Assembly: GCA_964388275.1 (NCBI GenBank)
Contig: CAYLZD010000010.1
Location: forward strand, 8,023 to 72,022
Source of the DNA: an uncultured Chromatiales bacterium
Lineage (GTDB): Bacteria; Bacteroidota; Ignavibacteria; SZUA-365
DNA: 64,000 nt
Direction: 5' to 3'
How positions within the stretch are numbered: position 1 is the first letter of the stretch; every line of letters starts with the position of its first letter. Shown piece after piece: positions 11,540-40,305 of this stretch. Position numbers and translations under genes: made by a program. The notes below the pieces were generated by a model. The model was not told where the DNA came from. It made no database searches and saw only the letters and a list, made by a program, of their open reading frames with translations.

Positions 11540-11549
11540 GGAAGAATCC

Positions 11550-12893
11550 TCAGGGCGCGCTCCGGCGCCGTATTGCGACCGCTGTGAGGTCGTCGCGCTT
11601 GTATTCAGGACAGGAAAATGAATCCACCGCCGAACATACGGATTTCACGATCCCTGCCGCGGTCGCTTCGCGGGTTTTGTCGAGCAGATCGGAAAGCGCC
11701 TTCTCGCCGAACTGCGTTCCGCGGTCGTCCGCCGCCTCGGTTATGCCGTCCGTGAACATCAGGAGAGCGTCTCCGGGCGCAATAGCGACCGCGAGTTCCC
11801 TGTATTTCTGGTCGGGGAAAATGCCGAGCAGAAGTCCGCCCGGCCTCTCGAGCGATCCGACGCCGCCGCCGGCACTTATTAGCAACGGCACATCATGACC
11901 GGCGCTCGCATATGTAAAACTGTGAGCGGCCGGATCGAGCACGCCGTAAAGGATCGTGATGAACATCGCGTCAGCCGCCTCGCCGCAAAGGGCGTCGTTG
12001 AGCGCTTCGAGGCATGCTCCCGGACCTTTGTCCTTCCGCGCGAGCACGCGCATGAGAGTTCTCGCGACGGACATGAACATGGCCGCGGGAATGCCTTTGC
12101 CCGAAACGTCCGCAACCACGACTCCCCAGCGGCCGCCCGCGAGCGGTATGTAGTCGAAGTAGTCTCCTCCGATCAGTTGAGCCGGCACGTACGCGCCGGC
12201 GATCTCGTAACCGGCAATGCTCGGGGTATCGGCGGGCAGGAGGGACCTCTGTATCCCGGCGGCCATGCGCATTTCCTGCTGCAACAGCCGGAGCTCGGCC
12301 TCCTCCTCGGCAAGGCGCGCGCTTTCCAGCACCTGCGCTGATTGTGCGCCGATGATCGCCAGCAGCCGCTGGTCCTCTTCCGAAAAACCGCGGGCGCCGC
12401 ATTTGTTGTAAAGCGCCAGGACTCCAGTCATAGCGCCTTTGACCAGCAGCGGAACGGCGAGGAGGGAACTCACACCGGCATCCCAGACGATTCCCGGAAA
12501 ACGCGCATCCCCGTTTACAGTCTCGATCCGGAGCGGCGCCCTGTTCTTGATCATCCAACCTATCAATGCCTGATCGATGTGGTAGCTGGGTTGCTCCAAT
12601 TTAGTCAGCTTGCTGCGCACCAGGGTGCGCGAGTCCTGTCCGGTATTCCTCTCGACAAGTGTGATAGCGCCCTGTTCGGCGTTCAATCTCCGAGTCGCCT
12701 GCCGCACTATCACTTCGATGATTTCGGAGGTCGTGTGCATTCCTCCGATCTGACCGGCGAGAGTGTTGAGATACGACAGCTCGTCGAGCGAGCGTTTGAG
12801 GCGGTCGATCTCGAACGCCGCGGGAGTTTCCTGCTTGTCGGCTGCTGAAGGATCCATTTTGTCTTTGATATCCGGGCGATATATCGGCGGCAT
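11550..12893 (-). CDS. GAF domain-containing PP2C-type (SpoIIE/RsbU-like) serine phosphatase.
   Basis: A GAF-like region is followed by the PPM fold with a metal-binding GDYFD motif, VADVSGKG and FTDGITEA. The start is chosen at MPPIYRP (12893); the longer ORF to 13085 has a non-protein-like N-terminus. Its stop is 11 nt from the kinase start. Confidence 0.8.
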   Translation of the reverse strand: MPPIYRPDIKDKMDPSAADKQETPAAFEIDRLKRSLDELSYLNTLAGQIGGMHTTSEIIEVIVRQATRRLNAEQGAITLVERNTGQDSRTLVRSKLTKLEQPSYHIDQALIGWMIKNRAPLRIETVNGDARFPGIVWDAGVSSLLAVPLLVKGAMTGVLALYNKCGARGFSEEDQRLLAIIGAQSAQVLESARLAEEEAELRLLQQEMRMAAGIQRSLLPADTPSIAGYEIAGAYVPAQLIGGDYFDYIPLAGGRWGVVVADVSGKGIPAAMFMSVARTLMRVLARKDKGPGACLEALNDALCGEAADAMFITILYGVLDPAAHSFTYASAGHDVPLLISAGGGVGSLERPGGLLLGIFPDQKYRELAVAIAPGDALLMFTDGITEAADDRGTQFGEKALSDLLDKTREATAAGIVKSVCSAVDSFSCPEYKRDDLTAVAIRRRSAP

Positions 12894-13223
12894 TCCCGCC
12901 CGCCGTCGTCGTCCAAGCGCCTGAATCGTCCGTATCCGGCATGGAAGGAATCCGCCATTGCAATGCGCTCCGGAAAGAGTGTTTGCCGGTCCCGAACAGT
13001 ACGATTGAAACCGCGAAATGATAGGATTTCCGCAAGACAAAAGCAAGAATCGCGACTTTGTTCGGGGATTGCGGAGAGCGGTCAAGCGGCCGCCGTCGCT
13101 TCCACACCGGCCCCGTTACCCGCGCGGCGGACAAGCCGGCTCGTCGGGCGCGCCGATGAGATACGCCGATGTGCCGGGACCGGTCAAGGTTATCGGGAAG
13201 CCGTCAGTACCCGGCGCCTTCCG

Positions 13224-15270: not shown

Positions 15271-16389
15271 TCATTTCGAAAATGCAGATCCGCGCCGACC
15301 GCCCGCCTCCGCTTTGAAACGGGTCACGGCCGTCGCTTCCGGCGTTCGCAGAAGCAGGAAATACACCCCGGGCACGAGACTTCCCGCATCGAAACCGAGA
15401 GTGTGAAATCCGGCGGGAAGTTCATGTCTCGCGATGATGTTGCGCACGGGCATCCCGAGAAGATTGAAAACGGCGGCCGAGACCGTGCCGGGCGCCGACA
15501 GCGAGAAGGAAAGGACCGCGCGTCCGGCGGCGGGATTCGGATGCACTGAGCAGTGTAATACCGGGGGCGGCCCGCCGACGATCATCACTTCCACGGTTTG
15601 TGAATATTCGAAAAGTCCGCCGGCGCCGCCGAAGCGCAATCTGTAGGCTACGATCGAGGCATCGCGGTCGCTTGCGACAAATGCGGCGGGGAAGGGATCG
15701 AGGAAACGGAAGTCCCCATGTTCGTCTCTGTCCATGCCGTCCACCGTGCCGACGCGTTTCCAGCCTTCGCTGTCACATCGGCGTTCTATCTCGAAGCCGA
15801 GTGGAGGCGCCGTGCCTTCGTATTTCCAGACGAGCAGCACCGCGCCGTCGTCCGGCACGGCAGAGAGCGACGACAGGGCGACTGGAAGCGGCACACTGCC
15901 GGCGTCCGGCTGGAAAAGGCTGCCGGTCTTGTCGAGACCGGCGATCTCCGCGTAGTATTCGCCGTTGTTTGCGGCGGTCCACGAGTCGTCGGCAAGCTCG
16001 AAGACGCCGCTTCCGCTTCCGGTTTGTCTGACGGGCACGGTGACGACGGATATCTGGGTGTTGGCGCTCCAATTGATGGTTTGCGCCGTGGCGGCTGCGA
16101 ATTTCTGGTATCGGTATACGCCGGAAGTCCGCTCGATGCCCTGCTTCTCTATCGAGTACGCGGCGGATGACGGATCGCCGAGACCGACGCCGTAAGCGTC
16201 GAGCCAGCGCACCGTGAAAACGATGTTCGAGAGCGGCAAGGCGGGCACCGTGTCGGAAGCCCGCAGCCGCACTTCGAGAGTGGAATCGCCGGCGTGGAAT
16301 ATACCGGCGGAGATCTGTTGCGCTTTCGAACCGGGAATCATCGGGCAGAGCAGGAATACTCCCGCGGTCACAGCGGCGATCGTTTTCAT
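15271..16389 (-). CDS. Secreted protein with a T9SS C-terminal sorting domain; hypothetical.
   Basis: The start at MKTIAAVTAGVFLLCPMIPGSKAQQ is a signal peptide, with GGAG upstream. The C-terminal HPNPAAGRAVLSFSLSAPGTVSAAVFNLLGMPVRNI...GVYFLLLRTPEATAVTRFK fits the T9SS CTD. Confidence 0.75.
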   Translation of the reverse strand: MKTIAAVTAGVFLLCPMIPGSKAQQISAGIFHAGDSTLEVRLRASDTVPALPLSNIVFTVRWLDAYGVGLGDPSSAAYSIEKQGIERTSGVYRYQKFAAATAQTINWSANTQISVVTVPVRQTGSGSGVFELADDSWTAANNGEYYAEIAGLDKTGSLFQPDAGSVPLPVALSSLSAVPDDGAVLLVWKYEGTAPPLGFEIERRCDSEGWKRVGTVDGMDRDEHGDFRFLDPFPAAFVASDRDASIVAYRLRFGGAGGLFEYSQTVEVMIVGGPPPVLHCSVHPNPAAGRAVLSFSLSAPGTVSAAVFNLLGMPVRNIIARHELPAGFHTLGFDAGSLVPGVYFLLLRTPEATAVTRFKAEAGGRRGSAFSK

Positions 16390-16948
16390 TTTCGACTCCT
16401 GTGCATATGGAACATACGTCCGGTATATCAGTGATCCCGACCGTTTTCCGTTTCCTTTGGAAGAAACAACAGTTGTTGGTAATAATAGAATTTGCGCCGG
16501 CCAAAAGCAATGAAAAATCAAATGGATTTTCCGATTCGTGGATATGGACTGCCCTAGTCCGCCAGAGATGGCGGTGTCGTCGGATGTAAATGTACGCCGC
16601 TGTTCCAGGAAGAAATCATCAGGAATCCGGCGCAGGGAAATAGGTTGAAAAATATCCGAATTTATATTGACTTTGTTCGCGGGGAAGAGTAGCTTTGATC
16701 TTCGTTTTTCATCAGCCCCACAAATCCTTCGAAAGGAAAATTATCGGTTTCACGAACGTGCGCACCTGACAGCTTCGGATGTCGTAGCAGGAGCAGTTGT
16801 ACCGCGGCTGCTTGTCTGTAGCGGAAGGATGACGCAAAAAGGCACGAATTCGGTTCGATGTGAACAACGAAGAGAATATCGCAGCGTCGCAAGGCGCGCG
16901 GTTGGAAGTCACTATACCATTCATCCCAATAATCAGGAGGACTGATTC

Positions 16949-17626
16949 ATGAAGTTAACCACGAGATTTCTCTCGTTCTTATCCCTGGTGGTCTTCACGG
17001 CAGTCGCATTGCAGGCGCAGTCGTTCACGATCCAGCCTACCGCATTGACGATAGCGCAGGGCGGTTCCGGGCAGATCACTCTGGAGAGCACGGTGGGCGA
17101 GCCGCAGGAGTGGAAAGTTGTGCAGCCGGTTTCGCCGAGCATAGCGGTGGCCCCGATGCAGGGCGCGCTTCCGGGCCATGCTCATGAAGCGGTGACGATC
17201 AAGGCGCTGGGCAAGCCGGGCGAGCGCGTAGGCCTTACCTTCACGAATGGAAAGGAAAAGGTCGGCGTGCGCGTGACCATCGGCAAGCCGGGAAGCGACG
17301 GAGTTGTGACAGGCGGCTGGAGTCTGTCTCCCATGGAGGGAGTATTCAGCGGCAAACCGGTTCAGGTGATTGTGAAGAACAGCACGAACAAACCGCTCAA
17401 TTTCACGGTCGGACGCATTCCCAAGACCATCAACGTCGCTCCGATGAGCGGCAATGTTCCGCCTATGGGCGAATTTCCGGTGAATATCGACGTCAAGATC
17501 GAAGGTTCGGTCTCGTCCACTCCGATATTGATTCCGTTCAACGCCTTGAAGGAGACGAAGAACTTCAAACTGACCATCAAGCCGCCTCCTCCTCCGCCGA
17601 ATCCGACGGATATCAAACCGAGATAA
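16949..17626 (+). CDS. Secreted protein with a proline-rich C-terminus (signal peptide MKLTTRFLSFLSLVVFTAVALQAQS); hypothetical.
   Basis: 225 aa. Two internal beta-rich repeats contain ...VAPMQG.LPG... / ...VAPMSGNVPP.... The protein ends KPPPPPPNPTDIKPR. Confidence 0.6.
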   Translation: MKLTTRFLSFLSLVVFTAVALQAQSFTIQPTALTIAQGGSGQITLESTVGEPQEWKVVQPVSPSIAVAPMQGALPGHAHEAVTIKALGKPGERVGLTFTNGKEKVGVRVTIGKPGSDGVVTGGWSLSPMEGVFSGKPVQVIVKNSTNKPLNFTVGRIPKTINVAPMSGNVPPMGEFPVNIDVKIEGSVSSTPILIPFNALKETKNFKLTIKPPPPPPNPTDIKPR

Positions 17627-17788
17627 ACCGGTCTTAAATTTTGCAGGCTGTTGTCGAAATATGTATTATCGACTTCGCCGGCTGTCTCAATCCGGCGAAG
17701 AACACCCGCATATTTCCTGAATCCCGGTCTGTCGATCGATATCCGCCGATAGATTTCTCCGGACGAGATCCGGAGTCATCTTGATCAT

Positions 17789-17842
17789 GGAACGCATCAC
17801 CGTCCGCGGAAAAGGCGGGCGGTGATGCGTTCCGATTTTTTA
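17789..17842 (+). terminator. Rho-independent terminator-like hairpin (13-bp stem) followed by a T-run, immediately upstream of the OMP gene.
   Basis: ggaacgcatcacc (17789-17801), an 19-nt loop, ggtgatgcgttcc (17821-17833), then GATTTTTTA. Confidence 0.5.
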
Positions 17843-17907
17843 TCCTCATCAATTCCCAAAATATGAAATGGACGAGCTTGCCGAAGCGGAACACGGCGTC
17901 GGCGCGT

Positions 17908-19632
17908 ATGCGATTCTTCCGGATTGTCCTCCCCGGGATGACGTTGCTTTGCTCTTTTTGCGTCTCCCTCTCTTACGGCCAGGAATTGGATAGACTGGAA
18001 GAAATACAGCCGTTTACATTGCAGGGCAATGTGAGCGGCACAACGACCGGCTACTCGATGTCGGGCATCGAGCGCAGGCAGACGCCGTTTTCATGGATGT
18101 TCAACGGCGCCGCGACGGCCACCGTTTACGACGTGGAAATGCCTTTCAGTTTCATGTTCGCCGAACGCGAGCGCGAGTTCCATCAACCGTTCAATGAATT
18201 CGGCATTTCCCCGAGTTACAAGTGGGTGAAATTGCATCTCGGATACAGGTCTCTTTCCTGGTCGCGCTACACGATGGCCGGGATGCGTTTCGCGGGCGCC
18301 GCCCTGGAACTGATGCCGCAGGACTTCCAATTCGCCGTCATGTACGGCCGGCTCGCGCGCGCCGTGGAGGAGGATCCCGACAACCCGCTGGCAGTGCCGG
18401 CTTACAAGAGAACAGGCGGCGGCGCCATGGCCAAGATCGGCAATGAAAACGGTTTCTTCCAGGTGTCTCTTTTCTGGGCGCTGGACGACACCGCCTCGCT
18501 CGCCCGTCAGCCGTCGTACATACTTCCGCAGGAAAACGTGGCCGCAGCCTTCGGCGCCTACTTCGTCGCCTTCGATTGGCTGACGGCGGAACTCGACGTC
18601 GGCGCCTGCTTCCTCACGAACAACCTTTTCTCGCCGGAACTGTCGGGCAGCGGACTCAGCGGCGGAAAGCAGCAGAGCCGCGTCAGGCATTTCAAGCGTT
18701 TCTTCGACTTGCGCACTTCATCCACGCTGTCTTTCGCGATGAAAACAGGCCTGCTGTTCCGCTTTCCCTGGATGAACGCGCGACTGGATTACGAAATAAT
18801 CGAACCGGAATTCACCGCCTTCGGCGCCTATTATTTCAACTCCGACATACAGAATCTCACGCTGGCCCCGAGTTTCCAACTCTTCGACGGCGCCGTGAGG
18901 GTGACGGCCTCCGGCGGCGTGCAGAGCGACAACGTGGGCAACACAAAGACGGCGACAACGACGCGCTTGATAACCTCGGCAAACATCGGCTGGTCGCCCA
19001 ACAACGTCTGGAATATCGACGCCATGTTCTCGAATTACGCCACCAGCCAGGCGGCCACACGCGAACCGCTCAACGATTCCATCAGGGTGCGGAACGTCAA
19101 TACATCCATCTCGCTAACACCGCGCATGATGCTGGAATCCGACGCGTTGAGGCATGTAGTGACACTCGCGGCCGGCACGATGGTCTACGACGACATGAAC
19201 ATCGTTACGGGCCGTTTTTCCGGATCTTCCACCACGACAACCTCGTTGTCGTACAACCTGGGATTCAAGGAAACCCCGTGGACCACCGGCGCCGCTATCA
19301 ACTGGTCCAACACCGAAACGGCGTTCGGAGTGACGAAAAATGTGGGCTTCGCAATCAACGGCGCCACATCATTTTTCGAAAGCGCGCTGAGTCTCAGCCT
19401 CACTATCGGATACTCCAGCATCACCGTCGGATCGGCGGACGCCTCGGGTGTGCTCACGCAGACTCTCGGAGTAGGATACCGGGCGTCGAACGACGACCAG
19501 TTCACGTTCTCACTTACCGGAAGCCAAAACGGAGGCGGTTCGGAAATCAATCCGGCCTATCGTGAATACACCGCCACCGTGAATTACAACAGAGCGATTT
19601 CCTGGACTCCCTCGGGGGCCGATACTCCATGA
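17908..19632 (+). CDS. Putative outer-membrane beta-barrel protein; hypothetical.
   Basis: The signal peptide is MRFFRIVLPGMTLLCSFCVSLSYGQ. Alternating hydrophobic beta-strand-like segments are rich in aromatic residues and G/S/T/N. The start is ambiguous between 17863 and 17908. Confidence 0.6.
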   Translation: MRFFRIVLPGMTLLCSFCVSLSYGQELDRLEEIQPFTLQGNVSGTTTGYSMSGIERRQTPFSWMFNGAATATVYDVEMPFSFMFAEREREFHQPFNEFGISPSYKWVKLHLGYRSLSWSRYTMAGMRFAGAALELMPQDFQFAVMYGRLARAVEEDPDNPLAVPAYKRTGGGAMAKIGNENGFFQVSLFWALDDTASLARQPSYILPQENVAAAFGAYFVAFDWLTAELDVGACFLTNNLFSPELSGSGLSGGKQQSRVRHFKRFFDLRTSSTLSFAMKTGLLFRFPWMNARLDYEIIEPEFTAFGAYYFNSDIQNLTLAPSFQLFDGAVRVTASGGVQSDNVGNTKTATTTRLITSANIGWSPNNVWNIDAMFSNYATSQAATREPLNDSIRVRNVNTSISLTPRMMLESDALRHVVTLAAGTMVYDDMNIVTGRFSGSSTTTTSLSYNLGFKETPWTTGAAINWSNTETAFGVTKNVGFAINGATSFFESALSLSLTIGYSSITVGSADASGVLTQTLGVGYRASNDDQFTFSLTGSQNGGGSEINPAYREYTATVNYNRAISWTPSGADTP

Positions 19633-19686
19633 TCTGTTTCCAAACCCTGCCGACGGACACCCGCATATTGTAAAAGGAAGCACCCC

Positions 19687-22600
19687 ATGAAAAGCATATC
19701 GAAGACTCGGCGCGCCTTGTTCGCACTGCTGTTTGCAGCTTCGCTGTCCGCACCGGCCGTTTCCCAGCCTTATCCGCTGCAGGTGACAGTGACTATTGTG
19801 CCGCCATACAGTCCTCTTCTGTCCGACTGGGAGGCGAATCCTGACCGCATACAACTCACGGTGCGCAATACGAGCGCGGGCACTCTTCAATTCCGGCTTT
19901 CCGGCACTCTCGAAAACAGCGACAAGTCCATACGCATCTGGACCAAGAACAACGCTCCGATGCAACCGTTCAACATCGGTCCGAACGGCATGCTTAATCT
20001 CAGCGGCCGCGATTACAACCTGTTCAATCAGAACCAGGTGGACGGGACAGGCGTGGACAGGGATCAGGTGGCGCGCAGCGGCCGCCTTCCCGAGGGATCG
20101 TACACGATCTGCGCGCAGGCGTTGGACTACGTGACTCTGGCGCCCCTGTCGGCGCCACCGCCCACGGGCTGCCAGTTCATCAACATACAATACGCGGAAA
20201 TTCCCCAGCCGATATCACCTCAATGCGCTTCCACAGTGCCGATGCGCACTCCGCAGTTGATCATGCTGCAGTGGACGGCGCCGGTGGCGGGCGTGCCGCC
20301 GGCCGAGCTCGGCAACATCCGCTACGAATTGATGCTCGTGCCCGTGGCGCCGGGCAAGACGCCTGAAGCTTCGATCGAGGCGCCGGGAGACCCGGCGCTG
20401 TTCGTTCGCCGCGATCTGACCTCGACCCTGTTCCAGTACGACGCCATGCTGCCCTTGCTCGTCAAGGGCAAGACTTACGCCTGGCGTGTGCGGGCTTATG
20501 CCGTCGGAGACAGGGTAGCATTTCGCAACGCCGGTAAAAGCATAGTCTGCTCATTCCTCTACGGCGAACCCGACAAGCGCACCAGCGCCCTGTGTTTCAC
20601 CTTGGATCCGGTGGAACCGAGGAGCGGCGGGGTGCTGACAAGCAGTCCCGTGCCGGTGTTCAAGCTTAAAGCGGCCCCGGACATTTCGAAACAAGGCATC
20701 AAGGGAGGGCGTCTCCGCATATGGCGCATGGTGAACAAGGACGAGAGCCTTGCCGCCGTGACCGTGCGCACGCCGGTGCACGACAAGGAATTCACCGGCA
20801 ACGCAGAAACCGATATCGCGTTGTCGCCCATGACCGGCGATTCGACGGCGATGGAGCTGAAATTCGCCGCGAAGGAGGATGCCAAATTCACCGCGACCAC
20901 GGAAATCTGGTATGCCTGGCGTTTCGACCTGCGGCACGACAGCGCCTCCATCCGCGCCGATTCGCTCGAATGTATACGCGGCGAAACCGCCAGCACACTG
21001 GGCACATTCAGCTGGGCGCCCTGCTTCGCCATGACAGCCGAGCAGCCAGTCCACAACGGGCGCTGGACGAGCGGACCGAAGCCCCTTTTTTCCGTGAAGG
21101 TGACTCCCGGCATCAATCACCTGTCCATCACCGGCGGCACACTCAACATTTGGAAGATAGACGATTCCACGAAGACGGAAATCGGAACCCGCTTCCCTGA
21201 CAGGCGCATCGTTTTCTCCGGAACTCCGTCCACCAATCTCGCACTCCGCACGGCGGCCGGAAGCGATACGATACTTGATCTGAAATTCGTCAATCACCCC
21301 GGGGCGACAAAGGAATGGCTGCCCGAGAACGGTGCGTGGTATTTGTGGGATTTCACGGCGGACTTCGACCAGTACGCCGTCCGTCAGGACAGGCAGCCCT
21401 GCACGGTGTCGAAAATCGTCAGCAGCAGAGGCGTCTTCCGTTATGATTCGACGGCCGCGAGGGATACCTCGAAACCCGCGGCCTGCGTCGGTCTCGAACC
21501 GGTCTCGCCTGAACAGAAAGGCGTCTGGTACAAGAGCAACAGGCCGCAATTCCGGTTGCACGCGTCGCCGGCCGTCGCGCAGGCGGGCATCAAAGGCGGC
21601 AACCTGAAAATCTGGGAAATGAACACCGCGAGCGAGGACACCTCCGTCGTGTTCGCCCGAGCGCCGGTGTACGACCGCAAGTTTTCCGGCAACAACACGA
21701 TCCATATCGAGACGAAACCCGATTCCGCCGGGGGCACTCCGGTGAACCTCGTGTTCATCAACGAGAACCGGAGTTCATCGACCGACATTTACAAACACGA
21801 CTTCACACAGGGCAAGTCCTATCTCTGGCGCTTCACGATGGGAGTGGACAGCGTGAAGATCCGCAAGGATTCCGTGCATTGCGCCGTGGCCGAGGTAGTG
21901 TCAACTCCCGGCATTTTCACTTTCGACACCACGTACAGGCCTGGCGACGTGCCGATCGCCGAGTGCGTGCGGCTCACTGCCCAGCAGCCGCCGGACCGCG
22001 GTTTCTGGAAAAAGGACTCCCTGCCGCTGTTCACGCTCAAGGCTGTGCCGGAAATAGTCACATCCGCCGTGCGTGGAGGCCGGCTGCAGGTCTGGCAGAT
22101 GAACAGTTCGCGCGAGGACACGACTCAGGTGCTCAAACGCGCTCCGGTGTTCGATCAGAGCTTCTCGGGCAGCGCGGCGGCTAACTTCGTTCAGAGGATG
22201 GATTCTACGGGCATGCCGCTGCTCGATCTCAAGTTCGTGAACTTCCCGGGAGCTGCGAAGCGATTCATTGCAATACAGAAGAAGAGCTATTTGTGGCGCT
22301 TCACGCTGGCGTTCAATCGTGCGACCATCAGGCGGGACAGCTCCTGCACGCGCGACACGGTTCGAAGCGTACTCGCCGTGTTCACCGCGGATTCCACCGC
22401 TACCGAGGGTTGCCTGGACGTCTGTTCCATCGCCGCGCCGGTGCTGCAAACGCCTGGAACGCAGCAATTCAAACCGAATGATTCGCTCCGCGTGGGCCGC
22501 TTCAGCATGAAACTGGTCACCGTAAGCGGTTCGCCCGCGGCGCTGAGCGGCACCGGACTGATACCGATTCCGTTCATGAGAACCGTGAAGATCGCGGTGG

Positions 22601-25569
22601 AATTTTTCGACATAAAGGTCAATGCCAACAACGAAGTCTACGAAGGCGATATCACGGCCCAGCAGGCCGAAGACGCCACGCTCACGAAGGAACTCGCCAA
22701 CGGACTCGGCGACGCCCTCGGCCTGACGGAAGAGCAGCTCAAGACGGTCTACGGCATCACAACCGACGCGGCGCGGCTGGTCAGCGCTCTGGCCGGACAG
22801 CCGGCGAAAATGCCTCTCGGTTTCGACAACGAGATCATGGGTCACAAGGTGGTGCTCGGCATAATAGGCATGGTGTTCAAGCCCACGGCGGCGTACATGA
22901 ACATGGTCATGTCCTACGCCATACCGGAATGGGGGCCGGAGATTGCCGTGGGCCTCGGCGCCCGCAAGATTTGCGTTTCGCCTTCCGGCATCGGCGGCGA
23001 CGGCAACGTGGAACTGTATCTGCCCGCCGACCTCGGCTACACGGCCAGCACAACCTGGAGCTTCAAATTCCTCGCGCCGAAGGGCGAGGAGCCCGGTTGT
23101 TATCTGGCGCTGGACTGCAAGGGCTTCAAGGAGCTGCATCTCAGCGCGCAGGTGGAATTCCCGCGCGCCTGGCTGAAACCCTTCCCGACCGACGACGGCA
23201 CGTCCAAAGTCAAGGCCAAGTTCCGCACTGCAATTTCCCGGGGAGGAAACTTCCTCGCCGCGGCGAGTCTCGACCGCTGTGAAATCGCGGGAGTTCCAGG
23301 CCTGGTTCTCGAAGTGCAGGAAATGAGCATAGACAAATCCATCGAGGCGAACCCCAACGGCATCTTCTTTCCTGACGGTTATGTGGGTGTGAAGGACAAC
23401 ACCTGGCAAGGCTTCTTCATCAAAAGGGCGAGCATTTCGCTGCCGCCCGCCCTGCGCACCTTCGACGCGAGCCAGCCGCCGCAGTTGGCGGTTCAGAACC
23501 TCCTGATCACGAAGGCGGGCATCACCGGAAGCTTCAGGGGCGAGAACGTGTTCCAGTATCCGACCGGCAACTTCGGATCCTGGGGCGGCAGTCTCGACAC
23601 GATCGGCGTGGAGATCGTCAGCAGTTCGCTCAAATCCGGCTGGTTGAAGGGTAGAATTCAGATGCCGATATCCGATTCCCCCTTCAAATACTCCGCCACG
23701 CTGTCGCGTCCTCTCGCAACCGACACGGCGAAGTCTCTGCGCATGGCCTTCGTCATACAGCCGGCCGACACTTTCCAGGCCAACATCTGGATGGCCTCGA
23801 TCAAGCTGTTTTCGACGTCCAGCATAACTCTCGGCAACGACAATCCGCAGCGCCAGTTCAGGGCGGTCGCCATACTCAACGGGAGCGTGTCCATAGCGGG
23901 GACGGTCGGCAACGTGCCCGGCGTGAACCTGCTCGGCATCGGCTTCCAGAACATGAAGCTGCAGAGCGTCAAGCCCTATTTCACGAAAGGCACGTTTAGC
24001 TTCGCCAGCCCGCAGAAAGGCCTGGCTGGATTCCCGATCTCAATATCCAACATCAACATGGAGAACAAGACGGTCTCCAACAAGGACCTGACGGGAATCA
24101 AGTTCACAATAAGCGTCAACTTCGCTCCGGGTTCCACGGCCATTGGAGGGAGCACGACGCTCACAATCTGGGGTGAACTGGATGTTAGCGGGGGCGGACA
24201 GAAGTTCAAATACAACAGCATCGAACTGAACCAGATCACGGTGAACGCCGACCTGGGGCCGGTTTCGATAGTCGGGTCGATCACCTTCTACAGGAACGAC
24301 CCGGTGTTCGGAAACGGCTTCCGTGGGGCCGTGCAGGCGAAAATCATCCAGATGATAGACGTCACGGTGACCGTGCAGTTCGGCAAGGTCAGCACGTACC
24401 GGTACTTCTACATTGATGCCAAGGCCATATTCAGCCCCGGCATCCCGATCGGCGCGGGACAGTTCCAGACGGGAACCGCATTCTACGGCTTCGGCGGCGG
24501 TTTCTGGTGGAACATGCGCAGGGAAGGACCGGGAACGCCCGGAGTGCCGACTTCCTCGGCCGTCGCCGGATCGACCCCCGGCGCGACGGTCTCCGGCTTC
24601 CGCTTCGTGCCGTCCGAGGGCGTTTTCGGCTTCAAGGCGATGGTGGTGATGGGCACATACCCGTCGTCCGCCGCTTTCAACGCCGATGTCATTCTTGAAA
24701 TCGAGCTGATTCGCAACACGAGCACCGGCGGCATTTCCATGGGCCGCATCACGCTGCAGGGCAACGGTTACATGATGGCGGAAGTGACCGCGAGGCAGAA
24801 CGCGAAAGTGACGATGTTCTGCGATCTCACCTTCTATTTCCCGCAGAAGATGTTCCACGGGATATTCACCGTGAGCATAAGCGCCACACCGGTGACGGGC
24901 GGCGGCACTGCCGTGCTTCATATCGAGGCGGGCAACTGGTACTTCAAGATCGGAGAACCGAGCAGCCGCATGCAGATCCGCCTCGCCTCCTGGCTCGGGC
25001 AGGTGGGCGCTTATCTGATGATGGGCAAGAATCTTCCACCGCCACCTCCTCCGCCTGAAAACGTGCGCCGGATAATCGGTTCGCCCACGTCGAGCCGCAA
25101 CACGAACATCGCGGCCGGGAACGGTTTCGCCTTCGGAGCGGATATCTCCTTCGATACGGGACGGCAGACTTGGGGAATCTTTTACGGGCGCTTCGCCGCC
25201 GGCGGCGGCTTCGACATAGCGGTGCTGAAACAGAATAATTGCACCGGCATCAACAAATGGCAGGCGCAGGGACAGCTCTATGCCTATGTGTCCGGCTCTG
25301 TCGGCTTGTACGTCGATATCAGCGGCCATCTTTGGAAGCCCTGCGGGCCTTGGTACTGCAAGATTTGCAAGTGGTGCAAGTGCTGTTACTTCGGTTACAA
25401 GGGTGAATTCCAGATCCTCGGCATCAACGCGGCCATGCTGCTCGAAGCCGGAGCTCCCAATCCGCTCTGGGCGAAGGGAACGGTGAGCGGCAATTACAAT
25501 ATCCTGGGGGGTTTGGTCAAGGGACATTGCACTTTCAAGTTCTCCAAGGGCACGGAGTGCAGAATATGA
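19687..25569 (+). CDS. Giant (1960 aa) secreted protein with 4-5 tandem ~160-aa N-terminal repeats, a large beta-rich C-terminal region and a Cys-rich tail; hypothetical.
   Basis: The signal peptide is MKSISKTRRALFALLFAASLSAPAVSQ. Repeats start at CFTLDPVEP, CFAMTAEQP, CVGLEPVSP and CVRLTAQQP. Each contains (L/F)KaxPxIxxxGIKGGxLxIWxM. A PPPPPPPE linker is present. The tail reads CGPWYCKICKWCKCCYFGYKGEF. Confidence 0.85.
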   Translation: MKSISKTRRALFALLFAASLSAPAVSQPYPLQVTVTIVPPYSPLLSDWEANPDRIQLTVRNTSAGTLQFRLSGTLENSDKSIRIWTKNNAPMQPFNIGPNGMLNLSGRDYNLFNQNQVDGTGVDRDQVARSGRLPEGSYTICAQALDYVTLAPLSAPPPTGCQFINIQYAEIPQPISPQCASTVPMRTPQLIMLQWTAPVAGVPPAELGNIRYELMLVPVAPGKTPEASIEAPGDPALFVRRDLTSTLFQYDAMLPLLVKGKTYAWRVRAYAVGDRVAFRNAGKSIVCSFLYGEPDKRTSALCFTLDPVEPRSGGVLTSSPVPVFKLKAAPDISKQGIKGGRLRIWRMVNKDESLAAVTVRTPVHDKEFTGNAETDIALSPMTGDSTAMELKFAAKEDAKFTATTEIWYAWRFDLRHDSASIRADSLECIRGETASTLGTFSWAPCFAMTAEQPVHNGRWTSGPKPLFSVKVTPGINHLSITGGTLNIWKIDDSTKTEIGTRFPDRRIVFSGTPSTNLALRTAAGSDTILDLKFVNHPGATKEWLPENGAWYLWDFTADFDQYAVRQDRQPCTVSKIVSSRGVFRYDSTAARDTSKPAACVGLEPVSPEQKGVWYKSNRPQFRLHASPAVAQAGIKGGNLKIWEMNTASEDTSVVFARAPVYDRKFSGNNTIHIETKPDSAGGTPVNLVFINENRSSSTDIYKHDFTQGKSYLWRFTMGVDSVKIRKDSVHCAVAEVVSTPGIFTFDTTYRPGDVPIAECVRLTAQQPPDRGFWKKDSLPLFTLKAVPEIVTSAVRGGRLQVWQMNSSREDTTQVLKRAPVFDQSFSGSAAANFVQRMDSTGMPLLDLKFVNFPGAAKRFIAIQKKSYLWRFTLAFNRATIRRDSSCTRDTVRSVLAVFTADSTATEGCLDVCSIAAPVLQTPGTQQFKPNDSLRVGRFSMKLVTVSGSPAALSGTGLIPIPFMRTVKIAVEFFDIKVNANNEVYEGDITAQQAEDATLTKELANGLGDALGLTEEQLKTVYGITTDAARLVSALAGQPAKMPLGFDNEIMGHKVVLGIIGMVFKPTAAYMNMVMSYAIPEWGPEIAVGLGARKICVSPSGIGGDGNVELYLPADLGYTASTTWSFKFLAPKGEEPGCYLALDCKGFKELHLSAQVEFPRAWLKPFPTDDGTSKVKAKFRTAISRGGNFLAAASLDRCEIAGVPGLVLEVQEMSIDKSIEANPNGIFFPDGYVGVKDNTWQGFFIKRASISLPPALRTFDASQPPQLAVQNLLITKAGITGSFRGENVFQYPTGNFGSWGGSLDTIGVEIVSSSLKSGWLKGRIQMPISDSPFKYSATLSRPLATDTAKSLRMAFVIQPADTFQANIWMASIKLFSTSSITLGNDNPQRQFRAVAILNGSVSIAGTVGNVPGVNLLGIGFQNMKLQSVKPYFTKGTFSFASPQKGLAGFPISISNINMENKTVSNKDLTGIKFTISVNFAPGSTAIGGSTTLTIWGELDVSGGGQKFKYNSIELNQITVNADLGPVSIVGSITFYRNDPVFGNGFRGAVQAKIIQMIDVTVTVQFGKVSTYRYFYIDAKAIFSPGIPIGAGQFQTGTAFYGFGGGFWWNMRREGPGTPGVPTSSAVAGSTPGATVSGFRFVPSEGVFGFKAMVVMGTYPSSAAFNADVILEIELIRNTSTGGISMGRITLQGNGYMMAEVTARQNAKVTMFCDLTFYFPQKMFHGIFTVSISATPVTGGGTAVLHIEAGNWYFKIGEPSSRMQIRLASWLGQVGAYLMMGKNLPPPPPPPENVRRIIGSPTSSRNTNIAAGNGFAFGADISFDTGRQTWGIFYGRFAAGGGFDIAVLKQNNCTGINKWQAQGQLYAYVSGSVGLYVDISGHLWKPCGPWYCKICKWCKCCYFGYKGEFQILGINAAMLLEAGAPNPLWAKGTVSGNYNILGGLVKGHCTFKFSKGTECRI

Positions 25570-27752
25570 AGCAGCGCACGATACTCCCAATCGGATCGAC
25601 GAAAACGAAAATGATGAACAACTCCTCTTTCTTCGTGAAGCGCGGGAAGTCGCTCCGCCGCCTGCTCGGCGTGCTGCTTCTTTCCGGGCCCGTGCTGCCG
25701 GCGCAGACGACTACGGAAGCGCCGTCGCGCACCGTGCCGCACGATCCCGGCTTCGCCTCCATACACCTGCTCGCCCGCGCTTCTTCTGATTCCATAATAC
25801 TGCGCTGGGCGCCGGGCACACCTCACGCATGGCGGCTCTGCAACCGCATCGGATACACCGTCAAGCGGCGCTCCGCCTCGGGCGGGACCGTGACCCTGAC
25901 GCAGGAACCCCTGCTCCCGTGGGATCCCGATCAGCTGAAGGACGCGTTGGACGCGGCGCCTCAAAACCGATATATCGGCGTGGCCGCACTCGCTCTCTGG
26001 AGCGACACGACTCTGATCGGCATCTCCGACAGTCTCGGCCTCGATACGCTCGAAGCCAACGCCGAGCGCAACACGCTGCTCTACGGCTACGCGTTGTTCA
26101 GCGCCGATAACGATCCGAGCGTGGCCGGCATGACGGCGCTGCGTTTCGTCGATCGCTCCGTGCGAGCCGGCGAGACCTACACGTACATCGTCTCGATGAG
26201 CGAAGCGCGGGATTACCGGATCATCCCGGGCGAGGTGACGGTAGTCGCGGGACCGGACGCCACCGTCCTGCCGCCGCCGAAGGATTTAACCGCGGAGGGA
26301 TCCGACGGCCGCATCGACCTGGTCTGGTCGGCCCCTGAATACCCGTACACGGGATATGAGGTGCTGCGCTCCGACGACGGAGGCCGAACCTACCGGGCTC
26401 TCACCGTCACTCCCATCGTCATTCTTCGCAACGAGAGCGGAAATCCGACGCCCGGGTCGTTCCGGGATACCGCCGTCGTCAATTACCGGGTTTACGGATA
26501 CAGGGTGAGGGGCATCGATGCTTTCGGCATGACCGGCCCCCATGCCGAGGCGAGCGCCTCGGCCCGCGATCTGACACCGCCGTTCACCCCCTTCGTGCGG
26601 AATCCCGAACAACTCGGCAGCGACAGGATCAAGCTCTCCTGGGAGGTGCCGGAGGCGGTTCCGGATCTGGCCGGCTTCCACATCTCGCGCAGCGCCTTGT
26701 CGGACAGCGGATTCAGACGCATAACGGACAAACCGCTCCCTAAATCGGCGCGTTCCTTCACCGATGACAAGCCAGACGAAGCCGAGCCGTTCTACATCGT
26801 TTCCGCTATCGACACGGCGGGAAATATCGCGAATTCGCTGCCGCTTTTTGGTTTTGTGCTCGACACGCTGCCGCCGGCCGTCCCGACAGGCCTGACGGGC
26901 GTAATCGACAGCAGCGGCATCGTCACGCTGCGCTGGAACGCGAACCGCGAGCGCAACCTGCTGGGTTACAGGGTCCTCTGGTCGAATGCGCTCGACCACG
27001 AATTCTCGCAGCGCACCGGGCAGGTGTGGAAAGACACGGTGTTCACGGATACGGTGGAGGTGAACACTCTGACTAAGCATGTGTATTACCAGGTTGCGGC
27101 CCTGAACTGGAACTACAACCACTCGCTGCCTTCCGAGCCGCTGGAAATCCGCAGGCCCGACGTGGTCCCGCCCGAAGCGCCGGTGTTCACGGACGTGCTC
27201 GCCAGCGACTCGTCGGTGCTTCTCCGTTGGGTGCCTTCCGGCAGCGGCGACCTGCGCGAGCATGTCTTGCTCAGGCGCGTATCCGGCGAAGACAAGTGGA
27301 TGCCGCTGGCAACGCTCGCACGCGGTTCGGATATGTACGAGGACCGGTCCGCGCGGACGAGCGTGATGTACGAATACCAGATCGAGGCCGTTGACAGCAG
27401 CGGACTGCGCGCCATGGCCGATGTGCCGGTGCAGGGCCGTCCTTACGATACCGGGCTGAGGCCGGCGCCTGCCGGCCTCCGGGCCGTCTACGATGAACGC
27501 AGCGGCGCCGTCACTATCGAGTGGCGTTACTCTCCGCGGCCGGATGAAGCCGTCTATTACGTGATTTACAGATCGTTCGAGGACGCTCCCATGATCGCCC
27601 TCGTCTCGGCGGAACTACCGGAAAACCGCTACACGGACAAGATGCTGGTGGGCGACGGCGATTATTCATACGCCGTCAGAGTGATGACACGCGGCGGCGC
27701 GGAGTCTCCGATGAGCGGCCGGGTGTCGGTGAAGGTGGGCGGATCGCGTTGA
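25566..27752 (+). CDS. Fibronectin type III repeat protein, translationally coupled (ATGA overlap) to the giant protein.
   Basis: A signal-like N-terminus. At least four FN3-like modules carry PP.xP..L signatures (LTPPFTPFVRNPEQLGSDRIKLSWE; LPPAVPTGLTGV...LRWNAN; PPEAPVFTDV...LLRWVPS; PAPAGLRAVYDE...IEWRYSP). Confidence 0.8.
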   Translation: MKQRTILPIGSTKTKMMNNSSFFVKRGKSLRRLLGVLLLSGPVLPAQTTTEAPSRTVPHDPGFASIHLLARASSDSIILRWAPGTPHAWRLCNRIGYTVKRRSASGGTVTLTQEPLLPWDPDQLKDALDAAPQNRYIGVAALALWSDTTLIGISDSLGLDTLEANAERNTLLYGYALFSADNDPSVAGMTALRFVDRSVRAGETYTYIVSMSEARDYRIIPGEVTVVAGPDATVLPPPKDLTAEGSDGRIDLVWSAPEYPYTGYEVLRSDDGGRTYRALTVTPIVILRNESGNPTPGSFRDTAVVNYRVYGYRVRGIDAFGMTGPHAEASASARDLTPPFTPFVRNPEQLGSDRIKLSWEVPEAVPDLAGFHISRSALSDSGFRRITDKPLPKSARSFTDDKPDEAEPFYIVSAIDTAGNIANSLPLFGFVLDTLPPAVPTGLTGVIDSSGIVTLRWNANRERNLLGYRVLWSNALDHEFSQRTGQVWKDTVFTDTVEVNTLTKHVYYQVAALNWNYNHSLPSEPLEIRRPDVVPPEAPVFTDVLASDSSVLLRWVPSGSGDLREHVLLRRVSGEDKWMPLATLARGSDMYEDRSARTSVMYEYQIEAVDSSGLRAMADVPVQGRPYDTGLRPAPAGLRAVYDERSGAVTIEWRYSPRPDEAVYYVIYRSFEDAPMIALVSAELPENRYTDKMLVGDGDYSYAVRVMTRGGAESPMSGRVSVKVGGSR

Positions 27753-30698: not shown

Positions 30699-33600
30699 AT
30701 GTTCACCCGAATCTCCGCGCTTCTTCTGTTCATTTCCATTTCGCTTCCCACCGCGGGCAACGACGCGGCCGGACGAGCGGGAAACAGCGGAGCGCCGAGT
30801 TTGTTGATGAATCCTTCATGGTCGCGATCCGGCGCGGCGCCTGCCGCCGACAGTATCTCCGGAGTCATCAACATATACGCGCGGCTTCTTGCATTCACAC
30901 CCTGCCCGGAAAAAGTGATCGTGTCGAGCAGCGCCGGCTTCCGTCCCAAGGATCTGGCATTGGTGATGCAGATGACCGGCGCGAAGGTGCGGAGACCCAA
31001 CACCACGAACTACGGTCAGATCACAGACACGGCCTCGGCCGGAGTCTTCGAATTCGTCCGAATCAAACGCGTCGAGACGCAGGAATTGGTGTTCGAGACG
31101 CCGCTGCAGCGCGTCTACGATCTTCGCGAAGCAGTGCAGGTGATACGCGTGCCCGAATACGGTGATGTGACCATAACTTCGGACGTGACCGCGCCGCCAT
31201 GGGACGGGTCGACGGGCGGCGTGATCGCGCTGGTGAGCAACGGGACTGTGACTCTGCGCGCCGACATAGACGCAACCGGCACGGGTTTTCCGGGAGGAGA
31301 TCCATCGGTCAATGCCAGTTTCAACAGTGTCACCGATTATGTGCATGCGACCCTTTCCGGCAGATCCGGCTTGAAGGGCGCCGGCATTGCCGCGGCCTTG
31401 CCCGACTCCAACGCGGGCCGGGGCGCTCTGGCCAACGGCGGCGGCGGCGGCAACGGCCACAATGCCGGCGGCGGCGGCGGAAGCAACGCGGGCACAGGCG
31501 GCAGAGGCGGCAATCAGCATAACGGAGCTTCACCAATGGAAATAGGAGGAATCGGCGGTTGGGCGCTGCCATACGGAGCGCAGCCGCCGCGCGTGTTCCT
31601 AGGCGGGGGAGGCGGAGGCGGTCATCAGAATGACGGGCTCGGTGTTAAGGGAGCTCCGGGAGGCGGCATCGTTATGATCAAAGCGGACAGGATCCTCAGT
31701 CCGCTCGGAAGAGTCATCAAAGCCGACGGCGCGGCCCAGACACGCCGCGCGGGCAATGATGGAGGCGGCGGCGGGGGCGGCGGAGGCGCCATCCTGACTG
31801 ACGTGCGCGAATTCGGAAACCGCGTCACATTGTCGGCCAGGGGAGGCAAGGGCGGCGACGTCGACAACGCGGGAAACAGAACTCAATGCCATGGATCGGG
31901 CGGCGGGGGCGGAGGCGGTGTCGTATGGATTTCCGGCGCGGTCTTCACTCCCAACATGCTGCCCATTGTCACAGGCGGAGCTCCGGGACTCAATGTAATT
32001 ACCGGACCTTGCCGCGATCAGCCATACGGTGCGCTGGAAGGCGATACCGGTCTAACGCTCACCGAACTGCGAATCGAGTGGAACGGCGGGACTCCGCGCA
32101 GCTTCACGGCCACTTTGCCGGATACCATAAGAATCTGCGAAGGCGACTCCGTCTGGTTGAATCCTCGCGTCAACGGCGGCTTCCGGCCGCTCCGCTATGA
32201 ATGGCGCCCTCCAATCGATCCTTCTGCCGTGGTCCGGCCGCCTGTCTCCACGACATACACGCTGATCGTCACCGACATCTGTGACGACACCGCAATAGCA
32301 TCGGTGCGGGTGGAGGTCATTCCGCTGCCGACCGCTGCCCTCCAGAAAAAATGCGACTCGCTTTTCGCCGAGCCTCCAGGGCTCAAGTACGAATGGTACC
32401 GCGACGGTTTCAGGCTCTATGGCGATTCGCTCGACCGCATCGAAGCTCGTATCGACGGCGTGTACTCGGTGCGTGTGGAAACTCCCGAGGGCTGCGGCTC
32501 GTTGTCGCCATCGCTCGAGGTACGGCTTCTCTCGGCCACTCCTCCACCCGGTCCCATCACAATTTGCGAGGACTCCTGCGTGACGTTGAGGCCTCTTGTC
32601 GGCGGCGGAACGGCGCCGTACACTTACTCGTGGATTCCGCAGGAAGGGATGATCCCTCCGCCGCATGCGCCCACGGTGTGCCCCGACAGCAGCACTACGT
32701 ACGTGCTGACTGTAGTGGACGCATGCCTGGATACGGTGAGACTGCAGATCCCGGTCACCGTATTCCCGCGTCCTCTCGCGGCGATCAGCCGGTCCGGCGA
32801 TACTTTACGCGCCGAACCGCCCGGCATGACGTACCAGTGGTTCAGAAACGACACGCTGCTGCCGGGCGCCAGGTCAAGGACTATAGTGCCGGACATTCCC
32901 GGCTTCTATTCAGTGGAAGTCACAAGCCTGGAAGGATGCCGGGCGATGTCGCCTCCCGAGAGGATCTTCCGCTTCGCGGCTTTTCTGCCTGCTTCATTGG
33001 CCGTCTGCCCTGATTCCTGCACAGTCTTGCCCTTGCTGGTGGCCGGAGGCCGTAAACCGTTCAGCTTCGCCTGGTCTCCCGGCGGTTCGCTGACGCTGCC
33101 GTCTGATTCGACTCCCGTCGCCTGTCCGGACAGCACGACCCTGTACACGGTGATAATCACCGACAATAATGGAGATACCACATCGGCATCCGTCAGGGTT
33201 CGCGTTCATCCTCGAATTTCCGCGATCATTCACAGAAGCGGCGACACGTTGACCGCCGATCCGGAAGGAGCGTCCTACCGCTGGTTCAGGGATGGAGTCC
33301 CTATCCCGGGCGCGGACCGCCGGCAGCTGATTACAGATGTCGACGGATTTTACACGGTCGAGATCATATCTTCTGAAGGCTGTCCCGCGCTGTCCCCGCC
33401 CGAGAGGCTCAAGAAGTACCTGTTGAGGATGCCCGGTGCTCCCAGTATCTGCCGTGATTCCTGCGTTTTATTGAGCCCCGAGGTTATAGGCGGCTCAAGA
33501 CCTCTGAGCATGTTCTGGCGGCCGTCTGCGGGATTGAGTTTCCCGAGCGACTCCACGGCGCTGGCCTGTCCCGACTCCAGCACGACCTACATGCTCACCG

Positions 33601-36747: not shown

Positions 36748-36852
36748 GGCCGGAAATCGCCGCCTGACGCCGTCTCGCGCGGCAGCATGCGCGGGGCGGC
36801 GATGTTTCGTATGTTGCAGCCGGTACGTACGACAATTAAGGAGACGGATGCC

Positions 36853-39369: not shown

Positions 39370-40305
39370 ATGCCGAGATATTTTACACATTACTGGAACA
39401 ACGCGATCGTCGAGTATGCCATGGACTCGGAAGAGGAGGAGTCGCCGCTCGAGGTTACAGCCGGCGACGGTCTCACCCACTCCGGCGTCGCGGTAGGCGA
39501 CGTCGTTTACATTATCAACGTCTTGAAAGGCGACCTGTTCCTGATCGGGCGCATGCGCGTGGGAGAGATCCTGCGCGGCCGCAGCAGCGCGTGGCGGCGG
39601 TTGAAGCATCGCGCGTGGGCGGCCGAGGAACATCTTGTAGCCGCGCGGGGCTCCGGAACTCCGCAGTATTTCTCGCGCGCCGTGACGGCGGCGGCACTGC
39701 GCAATCTCAGTTTCCTGGATCCCAACGGCCCGGTTCAACCGACATTTTCGGCCGGAGAACGGGTGGAGAAAAGGTCCGTTCGCGGCTTCCGTGAAATCGA
39801 CGATGCTACGGCGCGGCTGTTCGACGAAATCCTTGCGCAGCCCATTTCCGACGATCGAGACTACGACGATGAAGAATACGATGAGACAGAGGACGGCGAC
39901 GGCCTGTCGGACAGCGATCTGAAGGATATTCAGGAAAAATACGACAATGCCGAACTGGTCGAACGCGTCGCGGATGCGGCCGCGGCTGCGACGGCGCGCG
40001 AACTCGAGGCGCAGGGTTACCGCTTCATCGGCAAGACCGATTCCTCCTCCGCTGGTTTCAACCTGCGCTTCCTGGACGGGGAGGACGTGGCGCATGTGAT
40101 AGTGAAGGGCGTCGTAGACAGCGAACCCGCCTTCCTGATCACCGAACGCGAGATCGCCACCCTCGAGTCCGAGCACTCCGCGATGCTTTCAGTTGTTTCA
40201 TCCGCTCTCTCGCGTTCGCCTGCCGTCGCAATCTGGACATCGGAGGATTTCTTCGACGAATTCGCCGTGCGGCCGGTGTTGTATGCCGCCAGGCGTGTGG
40301 ATTGA
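39370..40305 (+). CDS. Hypothetical protein with an N-terminal PUA/EVE-like beta-barrel region, an acidic linker and a C-terminal DUF3883-like domain.
   Basis: The N-terminus is MPRYFTHYWNNAIVEY...GDVVYIINVLKGDLFLIGRMRVGEI. An acidic tract DDRDYDDEEYDETEDGDG follows. The C-terminal GYRFIGKTDSSSAGFNLRFLDGEDVAHVIVKGVVDSEPAFLITEREIA resembles DUF3883 (GxDI...IEVKGT). Confidence 0.5.
   Translation: MPRYFTHYWNNAIVEYAMDSEEEESPLEVTAGDGLTHSGVAVGDVVYIINVLKGDLFLIGRMRVGEILRGRSSAWRRLKHRAWAAEEHLVAARGSGTPQYFSRAVTAAALRNLSFLDPNGPVQPTFSAGERVEKRSVRGFREIDDATARLFDEILAQPISDDRDYDDEEYDETEDGDGLSDSDLKDIQEKYDNAELVERVADAAAAATARELEAQGYRFIGKTDSSSAGFNLRFLDGEDVAHVIVKGVVDSEPAFLITEREIATLESEHSAMLSVVSSALSRSPAVAIWTSEDFFDEFAVRPVLYAARRVD

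Follow-up and report, generated by a model that had tools for sequence, protein, structure and literature searches.

The window analyzed here is a 64,000-nucleotide stretch of contig CAYLZD010000010.1 (positions 8,023 to 72,022 of the forward strand; assembly GCA_964388275.1), filed under an uncultured Chromatiales bacterium and placed by GTDB among the Ignavibacteria of the Bacteroidota. It carries three adjacent genes for an outer-membrane β-barrel, a giant TANFOR-domain protein of 1960 amino acids (aa), and a signal-peptide-bearing protein with an array of fibronectin type III (FN3) domains. These genes form a conserved, co-inherited unit across the Fibrobacterota–Chlorobiota–Bacteroidota (FCB) group, comprising Bacteroidota (including Ignavibacteria-like lineages), Zixibacteria, Fibrobacterota, and Marinimicrobia. 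We propose, with the arguments for and against in about even balance, that the cassette is a dedicated outer-membrane module for export or anchoring. The original prediction, made from the sequence of the window, had described a surface operon of four genes in which an outer-membrane protein serves the giant. The four co-directional open reading frames (ORFs) are indeed present, all on the forward strand, and the core idea of a dedicated partner is strongly supported by two-way synteny and co-divergence, although the unit has three genes and not four.

The barrel, giant, and FN3 genes are inherited together

With the N-terminal TANFOR module as seed and one genome per species, we collected 80 genome loci, which span Pedobacter, Flavobacterium, Chitinophagales, Bacteroidales, Ignavibacteria, Zixibacteria, Fibrobacterota, WOR-3, and Marinimicrobia. 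A barrel gene lies directly 5′ of the TANFOR gene, on the same strand, in 61 of the 70 loci that can be evaluated upstream; it is found elsewhere in the locus in five and is missing from four. Where both sides can be evaluated (56 loci), all three genes are present in 52 and follow the canonical adjacent order in 42. The reciprocal search, a metagenome scan seeded with a nine-sequence barrel alignment, yielded a TANFOR ORF immediately downstream of the barrel in 60 of 61 loci with at least 1 kb of downstream sequence. The original prediction had named giants without these partners and a barrel of the generic porin type as observations that would speak against it; instead, homologues of the giant only rarely lack these partners, and the barrel is not a generic porin.

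When all ORFs of the 80 loci were clustered against each other, only the barrel, giant, and FN3 families proved common to most loci, and no fourth conserved gene emerged. The barrel and the TANFOR module also diverge in step: in a set of 49 cassettes, the correlation between their pairwise distances is r = 0.958 (calculated without a species-tree control), and the correlations with the FN3 partner are 0.85.

The arrangement of the cassette varies to some extent. The order giant, FN3, barrel also occurs, and two loci, from an Ignavibacteriales metagenome-assembled genome (MAG) (L082, 1813–15349) and a Melioribacter MAG (L084, 223–13759), show the order giant 1, FN3, barrel, giant 2, FN3. The single barrel between two giants implies that one barrel may serve both of them. 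A pair of genes for a LytTR response regulator and a histidine kinase with TPR repeats flanks the cassette in 23 of the 80 loci. Upstream of the window cassette, on the reverse strand (9095–13085), lie genes for a Ser/Thr protein kinase that contains TPR repeats and for a GAF-SpoIIE (PP2C) phosphatase.

The partner is modeled as a bare β-barrel with about 26 strands

Gene 2 encodes a β-barrel outer-membrane protein, as had been predicted. Translation from the ATG at 17863 gives 589 aa; judged by the sequence, a start at Met16 (17908, 574 aa) is likelier, as it yields a signal peptide of family-typical length. The AlphaFold2 (AF2) model, built with 102 homologues, reaches a predicted local distance difference test (pLDDT) of 92 and a predicted template modeling score (pTM) of 0.84. 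It consists of the signal-peptide helix, 25 long strands, and one short strand, and contains no POTRA, plug, periplasmic, or other extra domain. No sequence relative of the protein was found in Pfam, NCBIfam, or PDB, and the structural matches of the model are generic. The family is large: an exhaustive search with a hidden Markov model returned 4015 representative clusters, and among those listed almost all members are ∼560 aa long.

Several known barrel families were considered. The PorP/SprF models of Pfam and NCBIfam match neither the window barrel nor any of six family members. In UniRef, a Pedobacter homologue (P0074) is labeled DUF5723, a family to which a 16-strand barrel described in Brachyspira belongs; the label could not be reproduced, with P0074 and five other members lacking a Pfam match at E ≤ 1. 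Membership in DUF5723, PorP/SprF, Omp85/TpsB, or the ushers is ruled out by the Pfam, NCBIfam, and PDB searches together with structure comparison.

A metagenome contig of 2621 bp from the Joint Genome Institute (JGI; P0030) encodes a protein that is 100% identical to the window barrel, which shows that this organism, or one almost identical to it, has turned up in other sampling as well. Among genomes, the nearest are MAGs that bear the labels Bacteroidota bacterium A05DMB-I-19 (GCA_029907355) and Ignavibacteria bacterium.

The giant combines a conserved N-terminal module with a variable body

The original prediction described the giant without recognizing its class. By its sequence, it is a member of the TANFOR-domain proteins, which were defined in 2020 as a class of polymorphic toxins of Bacteroidetes (Jana, Salomon & Bosis, PMC7073777). 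The NCBIfam model TIGR02542 matches aa 32–144 (E 1.1e-11) with 44.8 bits, which is below its curated cutoff of 67 and within the bounds that the defining paper sets for the domain (E < 1e-7 over at least 90 aa; PMC7073777). A homologue (P0009) carries the name TANFOR protein in JGI. Read by eye, the signal peptide is MKSISKTRRALFALLFAASLSAPAVS, followed by QP. Alignment of N-terminal modules shows an invariant LPEG.Y motif in the TANFOR domain and, in the second domain of the module, a YAWRV motif with a weak match to titin FN3. The first 295 residues of the giant align with giants of Pedobacter, Flavobacterium, and Saccharicrinis. This N-terminal module of ∼295 aa is the conserved part across all giants, whereas conservation of the body does not extend beyond a subfamily.

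In the window protein, the body begins with four tandem repeats that are 30–37% identical to each other, with C8 and C134 invariant, and that differ in number among relatives. They likely form a disulfide-bonded stalk. The conserved Cys pairs of the stalk and of the core that follows it fit an extracytoplasmic, disulfide-bonded protein. Elsewhere in the window (40193–42289, forward strand), a 698-aa protein ends in a ResA/TlpA-like thiol-disulfide oxidoreductase domain and might matter for an envelope proteome rich in disulfides.

The stalk leads into a core that AF2 models as an all-β meander of long antiparallel strands (pLDDT 80, pTM 0.44). The core is common to ∼45 relatives and occurs in 18 of the 111 TANFOR giants examined. 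It contains the GFGGGFWWN motif, as originally noted, and further Cys residues that are conserved in the alignment. Its longest predicted hairpin comprises two strands of 28 residues each (core residues 979–1006 and 1017–1044). The Cys cluster was likewise found as described; however, the tail that it was thought to mark is not a domain of its own. The cluster is inserted where this longest hairpin has its tip and is confined to the Ignavibacteria/Kapabacteria-like subfamily, being missing in the more distant relatives P0004, P0006, P0010, P0012, and P0017. The spacing of its residues looks like that of a metal-binding knuckle or a disulfide knot. Profile alignment (hhalign) of the core with the bodies of giants from Pedobacter, Rikenellaceae, Lentimicrobiaceae, and Chitinophagales gave weak, collinear C-terminal matches (best 69% probability), suggestive of a distant C-terminal kinship between the core and other groups of giants.

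The FN3 partner follows the giant

Gene 4 encodes an FN3-repeat protein, as predicted (Pfam fn3, E 1.6e-16). Its conservation is moderate and even along the full length, and homologous FN3 partners adjoin the giant in related loci, in most of which they come after it. The proposed translational coupling to the giant is less clear. The ATG at 25566 does overlap the TGA stop codon of the giant gene (ATGA), and the overlap is kept in two relatives, yet the same bases encode the last codons of the giant. A start 15–16 codons further down (25611 or 25614) is equally possible.

Gene 1 lies outside the conserved unit

Gene 1 encodes the Pro-rich secreted protein of the original prediction, with a signal peptide and a C terminus that reads PPPPPPNP. 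Two weak matches to Ig-like domains of the ASH type (PapD/MSP-like) were obtained, of which Cep192_D6 reaches E 2e-7, below the cutoff. No homologue of gene 1 is present in 88 related loci, including a locus whose giant is 81% identical to that of the window.

The strong hairpin that had been predicted ahead of the barrel gene is also present. It lies 160 nucleotides past the stop codon of gene 1 and folds with a free energy of −41.7 kcal/mol (z −7.8); none of 200 shuffled sequences was as stable. Among the two closest relatives, L001 lacks an equivalent 5′ of the barrel gene, and L010 has a weak and different one. With no equivalent in L001 and no matching Rfam family, the idea that the hairpin is a leader or attenuator conserved with the cassette is thus unsupported. 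We read the hairpin as the end of the gene 1 transcription unit and hence as the upstream boundary of the conserved genes 2–4. Gene 1 appears to be an orphan with its own terminator. Because gene 1 has no homologues in these loci, only the barrel, giant, and FN3 genes recur, and the hairpin is not conserved, the unit comprises three genes. The four-gene operon is ruled out by the absence of gene 1 from the 88 loci and by the terminator behind it.

Table 1. Features of the cassette and of its surroundings in the window
Feature	Position	Strand	Description
Gene 1	16949–17626	+	225-aa secreted protein with signal peptide
Terminator-like hairpin	17789–17833	+	19-bp perfect stem, 7-nucleotide loop, U-run to ∼17842
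Gene 2, outer-membrane β-barrel partner	17863–19632	+	signal peptide followed by a bare barrel of ∼26 strands
Gene 3, giant TANFOR-domain protein	19687–25569	+	1960 aa; Sec-type signal peptide, aa 1–25
TANFOR domain	19780–20181	+	aa 32–165 of the giant; first half of the N-terminal module; TIGR02542
Second domain of the N-terminal module	20194–20571	+	aa 170–295; FN3-like in appearance, YAWRV motif; from alignment
Tandem repeats	20572–22410	+	aa 296–908; four repeats of ∼150 aa, each with a conserved Cys pair
β-rich core	22411–25566	+	aa 909–1960 (∼1050 aa); predicted antiparallel, long-strand all-β meander
GFGGGFWWN motif	24487–24513	+	aa 1601–1609; part of the near-invariant core signature YGFGGG.W
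Cys cluster CGPWYCKICKWCKCC	25342–25386	+	aa 1886–1900; C-x4-C-x2-C-x2-C-x-CC
Gene 4, FN3-array partner	25566–27752	+	728 aa from the ATGA start; signal peptide, ∼6 FN3-like domains
T9SS type A sorting domain	15271–16521	−	gene of a protein matching TIGR04183 at 23.6 bits (cutoff 23)
T9SS type A sorting domain	36787–38706	+	gene of a protein matching TIGR04183 at 23.1 bits (cutoff 23)
T9SS type A sorting domain	55434–57011	−	gene of a protein matching TIGR04183 at 21.1 bits (cutoff 23)

T9SS, type IX secretion system.

A model for export or anchoring of the giant

We propose the following course of events. All three proteins would be carried over the inner membrane by Sec, as suggested by the signal peptides seen in their sequences. 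The ∼560-aa partner would then insert into the outer membrane and form there the bare, ∼26-strand barrel of the AF2 model. A barrel of this width that lacks a plug would need an occupant, and the TANFOR module could dock in or at the barrel and act as an address or as the plug. Because the plug-less barrel would need an occupant, and because the TANFOR module is consistently co-encoded and co-diverging with it, the barrel may be the conduit of the giant, its anchor, or both. The variable remainder of the giant would be displayed on the cell surface; for the window copy, this part would consist of the four disulfide-bonded stalk repeats and the 1050-aa β-sheet core, for relatives of other bodies and sometimes of C-terminal toxins. 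The FN3 rod might be an accessory escort or strut, which is the weakest step of the model.

More tentatively, and with clearly less confidence than in a module for export or anchoring as such, we suggest that the cassette represents an outer-membrane secretion pathway of the FCB superphylum that is independent of the T9SS. In such a pathway, the barrel would recognize the TANFOR module and export or anchor giants, including polymorphic toxins, and would be a functional analogue of type Vb secretion and contact-dependent growth inhibition (CDI) with unrelated folds.

Several points weigh against the model of export or anchoring. The support for export or anchoring is genomic and model-based throughout, and the barrel has no periplasmic recognition domain by which a substrate could be recruited. 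A high correlation between distance matrices is expected for any co-inherited genes, and the value of 0.958 carries no species-tree control. The core of the giant matches only the walls of outer-membrane barrels and the β-belt of ApoB, at low TM-scores and from a model with a pTM of 0.44, and, to go by this model, could itself be membrane-associated. Moreover, no barrel lies within 10 kb of the TANFOR gene in L077, L079, L083, and L087. The giant of L079 is an orphan, with neither a barrel nor an FN3 gene within 10 kb; a complete cassette (L072) lies ∼0.5 Mb away on the same Saccharicrinis contig (CBDDLL010000001.1), a situation that recalls orphan cdiA or rhs genes. Finally, the T9SS is encoded in more than 95% of TANFOR-encoding genomes, with SprB and C-terminal sorting domain (CTD) cargo genes enriched near the TANFOR genes (PMC7073777), and SprB-type cargo adjoins the cassette in L008 and L089.

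These last observations are also the best argument for the alternative that survives best, which we nevertheless consider unlikely: the T9SS would export the giant via a noncanonical signal, as Jana et al. hypothesized, and the barrel would be a device for surface attachment or an adaptor, similar to the cognate PorP/SprF-like proteins of SprB-type cargo. The window itself encodes T9SS cargo. Three of its proteins match TIGR04183 (Table 1), and the organism therefore uses the T9SS; one of the cargo genes lies directly 5′ of gene 1 on the opposite strand. However, none of the four proteins, and hence none of the three in the cassette, carries a CTD of type A (TIGR04183/PF18962) or type B (TIGR04131) in Pfam and NCBIfam searches at E ≤ 0.1, whereas the same models do detect CTDs in other window proteins, a combination that the original prediction had correctly pointed out. 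The barrel matches neither PorP/SprF nor any other T9SS family, and adaptors of the PorP/SprF type are much smaller than a barrel of ∼26 strands. The cassette also extends beyond Bacteroidota to Zixibacteria, Marinimicrobia, and WOR-3, an argument from the distribution of the cassette alone.

A further gene of the window (30699–34988, forward strand) encodes a 1429-aa protein whose N-terminal part resembles the gliding protein AgmC (NF047640, E 2.6e-68, below the cutoff). By eye, its C terminus is like a T9SS CTD, and it is weakly similar to the SprB-type gene beside the cassette of L089.

It is improbable, in our judgment, that genes 2–4 instead encode a resident envelope complex, in which a membrane-embedded or lipid-binding core joins the barrel for a task in transport or in building the envelope, like LptD/LptE, TamA/TamB, or MtrAB. 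The structure search with the core does point in this direction, with weak local matches to the walls of large outer-membrane barrels (LptD, SlpA, and TonB-dependent receptors) and to the β-belt of ApoB. TamB/AsmA, β-helix, Rhs, and pore-forming-toxin folds were not among the matches, although the original prediction had suggested that TamB/AsmA-like, β-helix, or toxin folds might be found in the C-terminal half of the giant.

The window giant is probably not a weapon

Still less probable is that the window giant acts as a weapon, the β-rich core and its Cys-tipped hairpin forming a pore-forming or membrane-piercing toxin in a true polymorphic-toxin locus. The idea draws on the membership of the giant in the TANFOR class, on relatives that carry nuclease, deaminase, and ADP-ribosyltransferase (ART) toxins, and on the very long hairpin made by the 28-residue strands of the all-β core. 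However, no toxin family of Pfam or NCBIfam matches the window giant, no pore-forming toxin fold appears among the structure matches, and no candidate immunity gene follows; next to the giant comes the FN3 partner, then a convergent gene for a transporter of the major facilitator superfamily. In the absence of both a toxin domain and an immunity gene, the window giant falls outside the functional definition of a polymorphic toxin. Furthermore, the giant stops exactly at the end of the core, and because this end point is shared to the residue by ∼20 close relatives, its C terminus is conserved rather than polymorphic. Because this copy carries no toxin, a role as a surface adhesin or structural fiber, rather than as a weapon, is most likely.

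Toxins do occur at the ends of relatives. P0022 adds ART and CdiA_C toxin domains, with a barrel immediately downstream (E 9e-152) and an FN3 partner in the same cluster. In L089 (422–21590), the toxin-bearing giant (3255 aa; ART and CdiA_C) is part of a larger cluster, in which the FN3 partner comes first, then SprB-repeat T9SS cargo, two small genes, a 456-aa protein with PKD repeats, the giant, and last the barrel; PKD lipoproteins of ∼450 aa also sit 5′ of TANFOR genes in marine flavobacteria (table in PMC7073777). More distant relatives extend the giant by 450–750 aa. The extensions of P0004, P0006, P0009, P0010, and P0012 match no toxin family and show only weak, sub-threshold Ig-like matches, and the C-terminal 500 aa of ten diverse cassette giants contain no toxin domain, with CarboxypepD_reg repeats in one of them. 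Toxin-bearing and toxin-less giants have the same partners.

That a generic porin merely happens to stand beside unrelated surface-protein genes would fit the generic structural matches of the barrel but is effectively refuted by the reciprocal adjacency (60/61 and 61/70) across several phyla and by the co-divergence of barrel and giant, so that almost nothing speaks for this explanation.

A candidate route for TANFOR proteins

The authors who defined the TANFOR class left its export route open, speculated on the T9SS, and reported an enrichment of FN3, SprB, and CTD genes in the neighborhood of TANFOR genes (PMC7073777). The text of that paper mentions no barrel partner. Its supplementary table, however, lists domain-less proteins of 548–593 aa directly 5′ of the Chitinophaga deaminase and BaCT toxins, and such a protein also directly 5′ of the Tannerella forsythia TANFOR protein, for which no toxin domain was recognized. 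In C. pinensis DSM 2588, the gene upstream of the deaminase toxin WP_012790431 encodes 581 aa. A proteome of T. forsythia outer-membrane vesicles includes its TANFOR giant. In the literature that we searched, we found neither later work on the export route of TANFOR proteins nor a description of a barrel partner.

The near-obligate pairing with a barrel and an FN3 protein therefore provides a concrete, testable candidate for this route, and TANFOR genes are carried by the tractable species Flavobacterium johnsoniae, Chitinophaga pinensis, and T. forsythia. If the barrel is a translocon, the cassette would represent a new mechanism of outer-membrane secretion and would give Bacteroidota of the gut, the mouth, and the environment a previously unrecognized means to deliver toxins against bacteria and eukaryotes. 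Should the barrel be no more than an anchor, the cassette would still define the conserved machinery that accompanies a large family of giant surface proteins. Many TANFOR giants, including the window copy, have no recognizable toxin, and the class is therefore broader than the term “polymorphic toxins” implies.

Comparison with known systems

The window giant shares with the described TANFOR toxins (PMC7073777) a Sec signal followed by an N-terminal TANFOR domain, a very large size, FN3 genes nearby, and the taxonomic range, and its relatives carry ART/CdiA_C toxins. In contrast to them, the window copy lacks a C-terminal toxin and an immunity gene and ends at a conserved β-rich core. Whereas the paper proposes the T9SS, the most constant neighbor of the TANFOR genes in our analysis is the barrel.

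The SprB/SprF pair of the T9SS likewise combines the gene of a giant Bacteroidota surface protein with that of a dedicated outer-membrane β-barrel, and such loci are often found near TANFOR loci. The cassette differs from it by a giant without a CTD and by a barrel of ∼560 aa and ∼26 strands without a PorP/SprF match. Chaperone–usher systems (FimD and PapC) use a 24-strand pore with an internal plug, whereas the cassette barrel has neither a plug nor the N- and C-terminal periplasmic domains of ushers. Moreover, no PapD-like chaperone family is matched, and the substrate is a single giant chain rather than polymerizing pilins. The plug-and-barrel complexes LptD/LptE and MtrB/MtrA resemble the cassette in the size class of ∼26 strands, in the presumed need for an occupant, and in partners that are co-encoded.

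In its logic, the cassette resembles two-partner secretion (TPS) and CDI (TpsB/TpsA and CdiB/CdiA; type Vb). In both, the gene of the outer-membrane protein comes first and that of the giant second, and the N-terminal address of the giant is conserved, whereas its C terminus varies and is in some cases toxic, with CdiA_C in one relative of the window giant. Orphan giant genes elsewhere in the same genome occur in both as well. However, TpsB is a 16-strand Omp85 barrel with two POTRA domains, whereas the cassette barrel has ∼26 strands and no POTRA; the window giant has no TPS (Haemagg_act) domain in Pfam and no β-helix or FHA repeats in the core model; and the cassette includes an FN3 partner as an additional obligatory component. 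No homology in sequence or fold was found, nor was any of the defining TPS/CDI features that we looked for. The cassette is thus not a homologue of TPS/CDI but is analogous to it in logic: an outer-membrane barrel paired with a giant that has a conserved N-terminal address and a changeable body.

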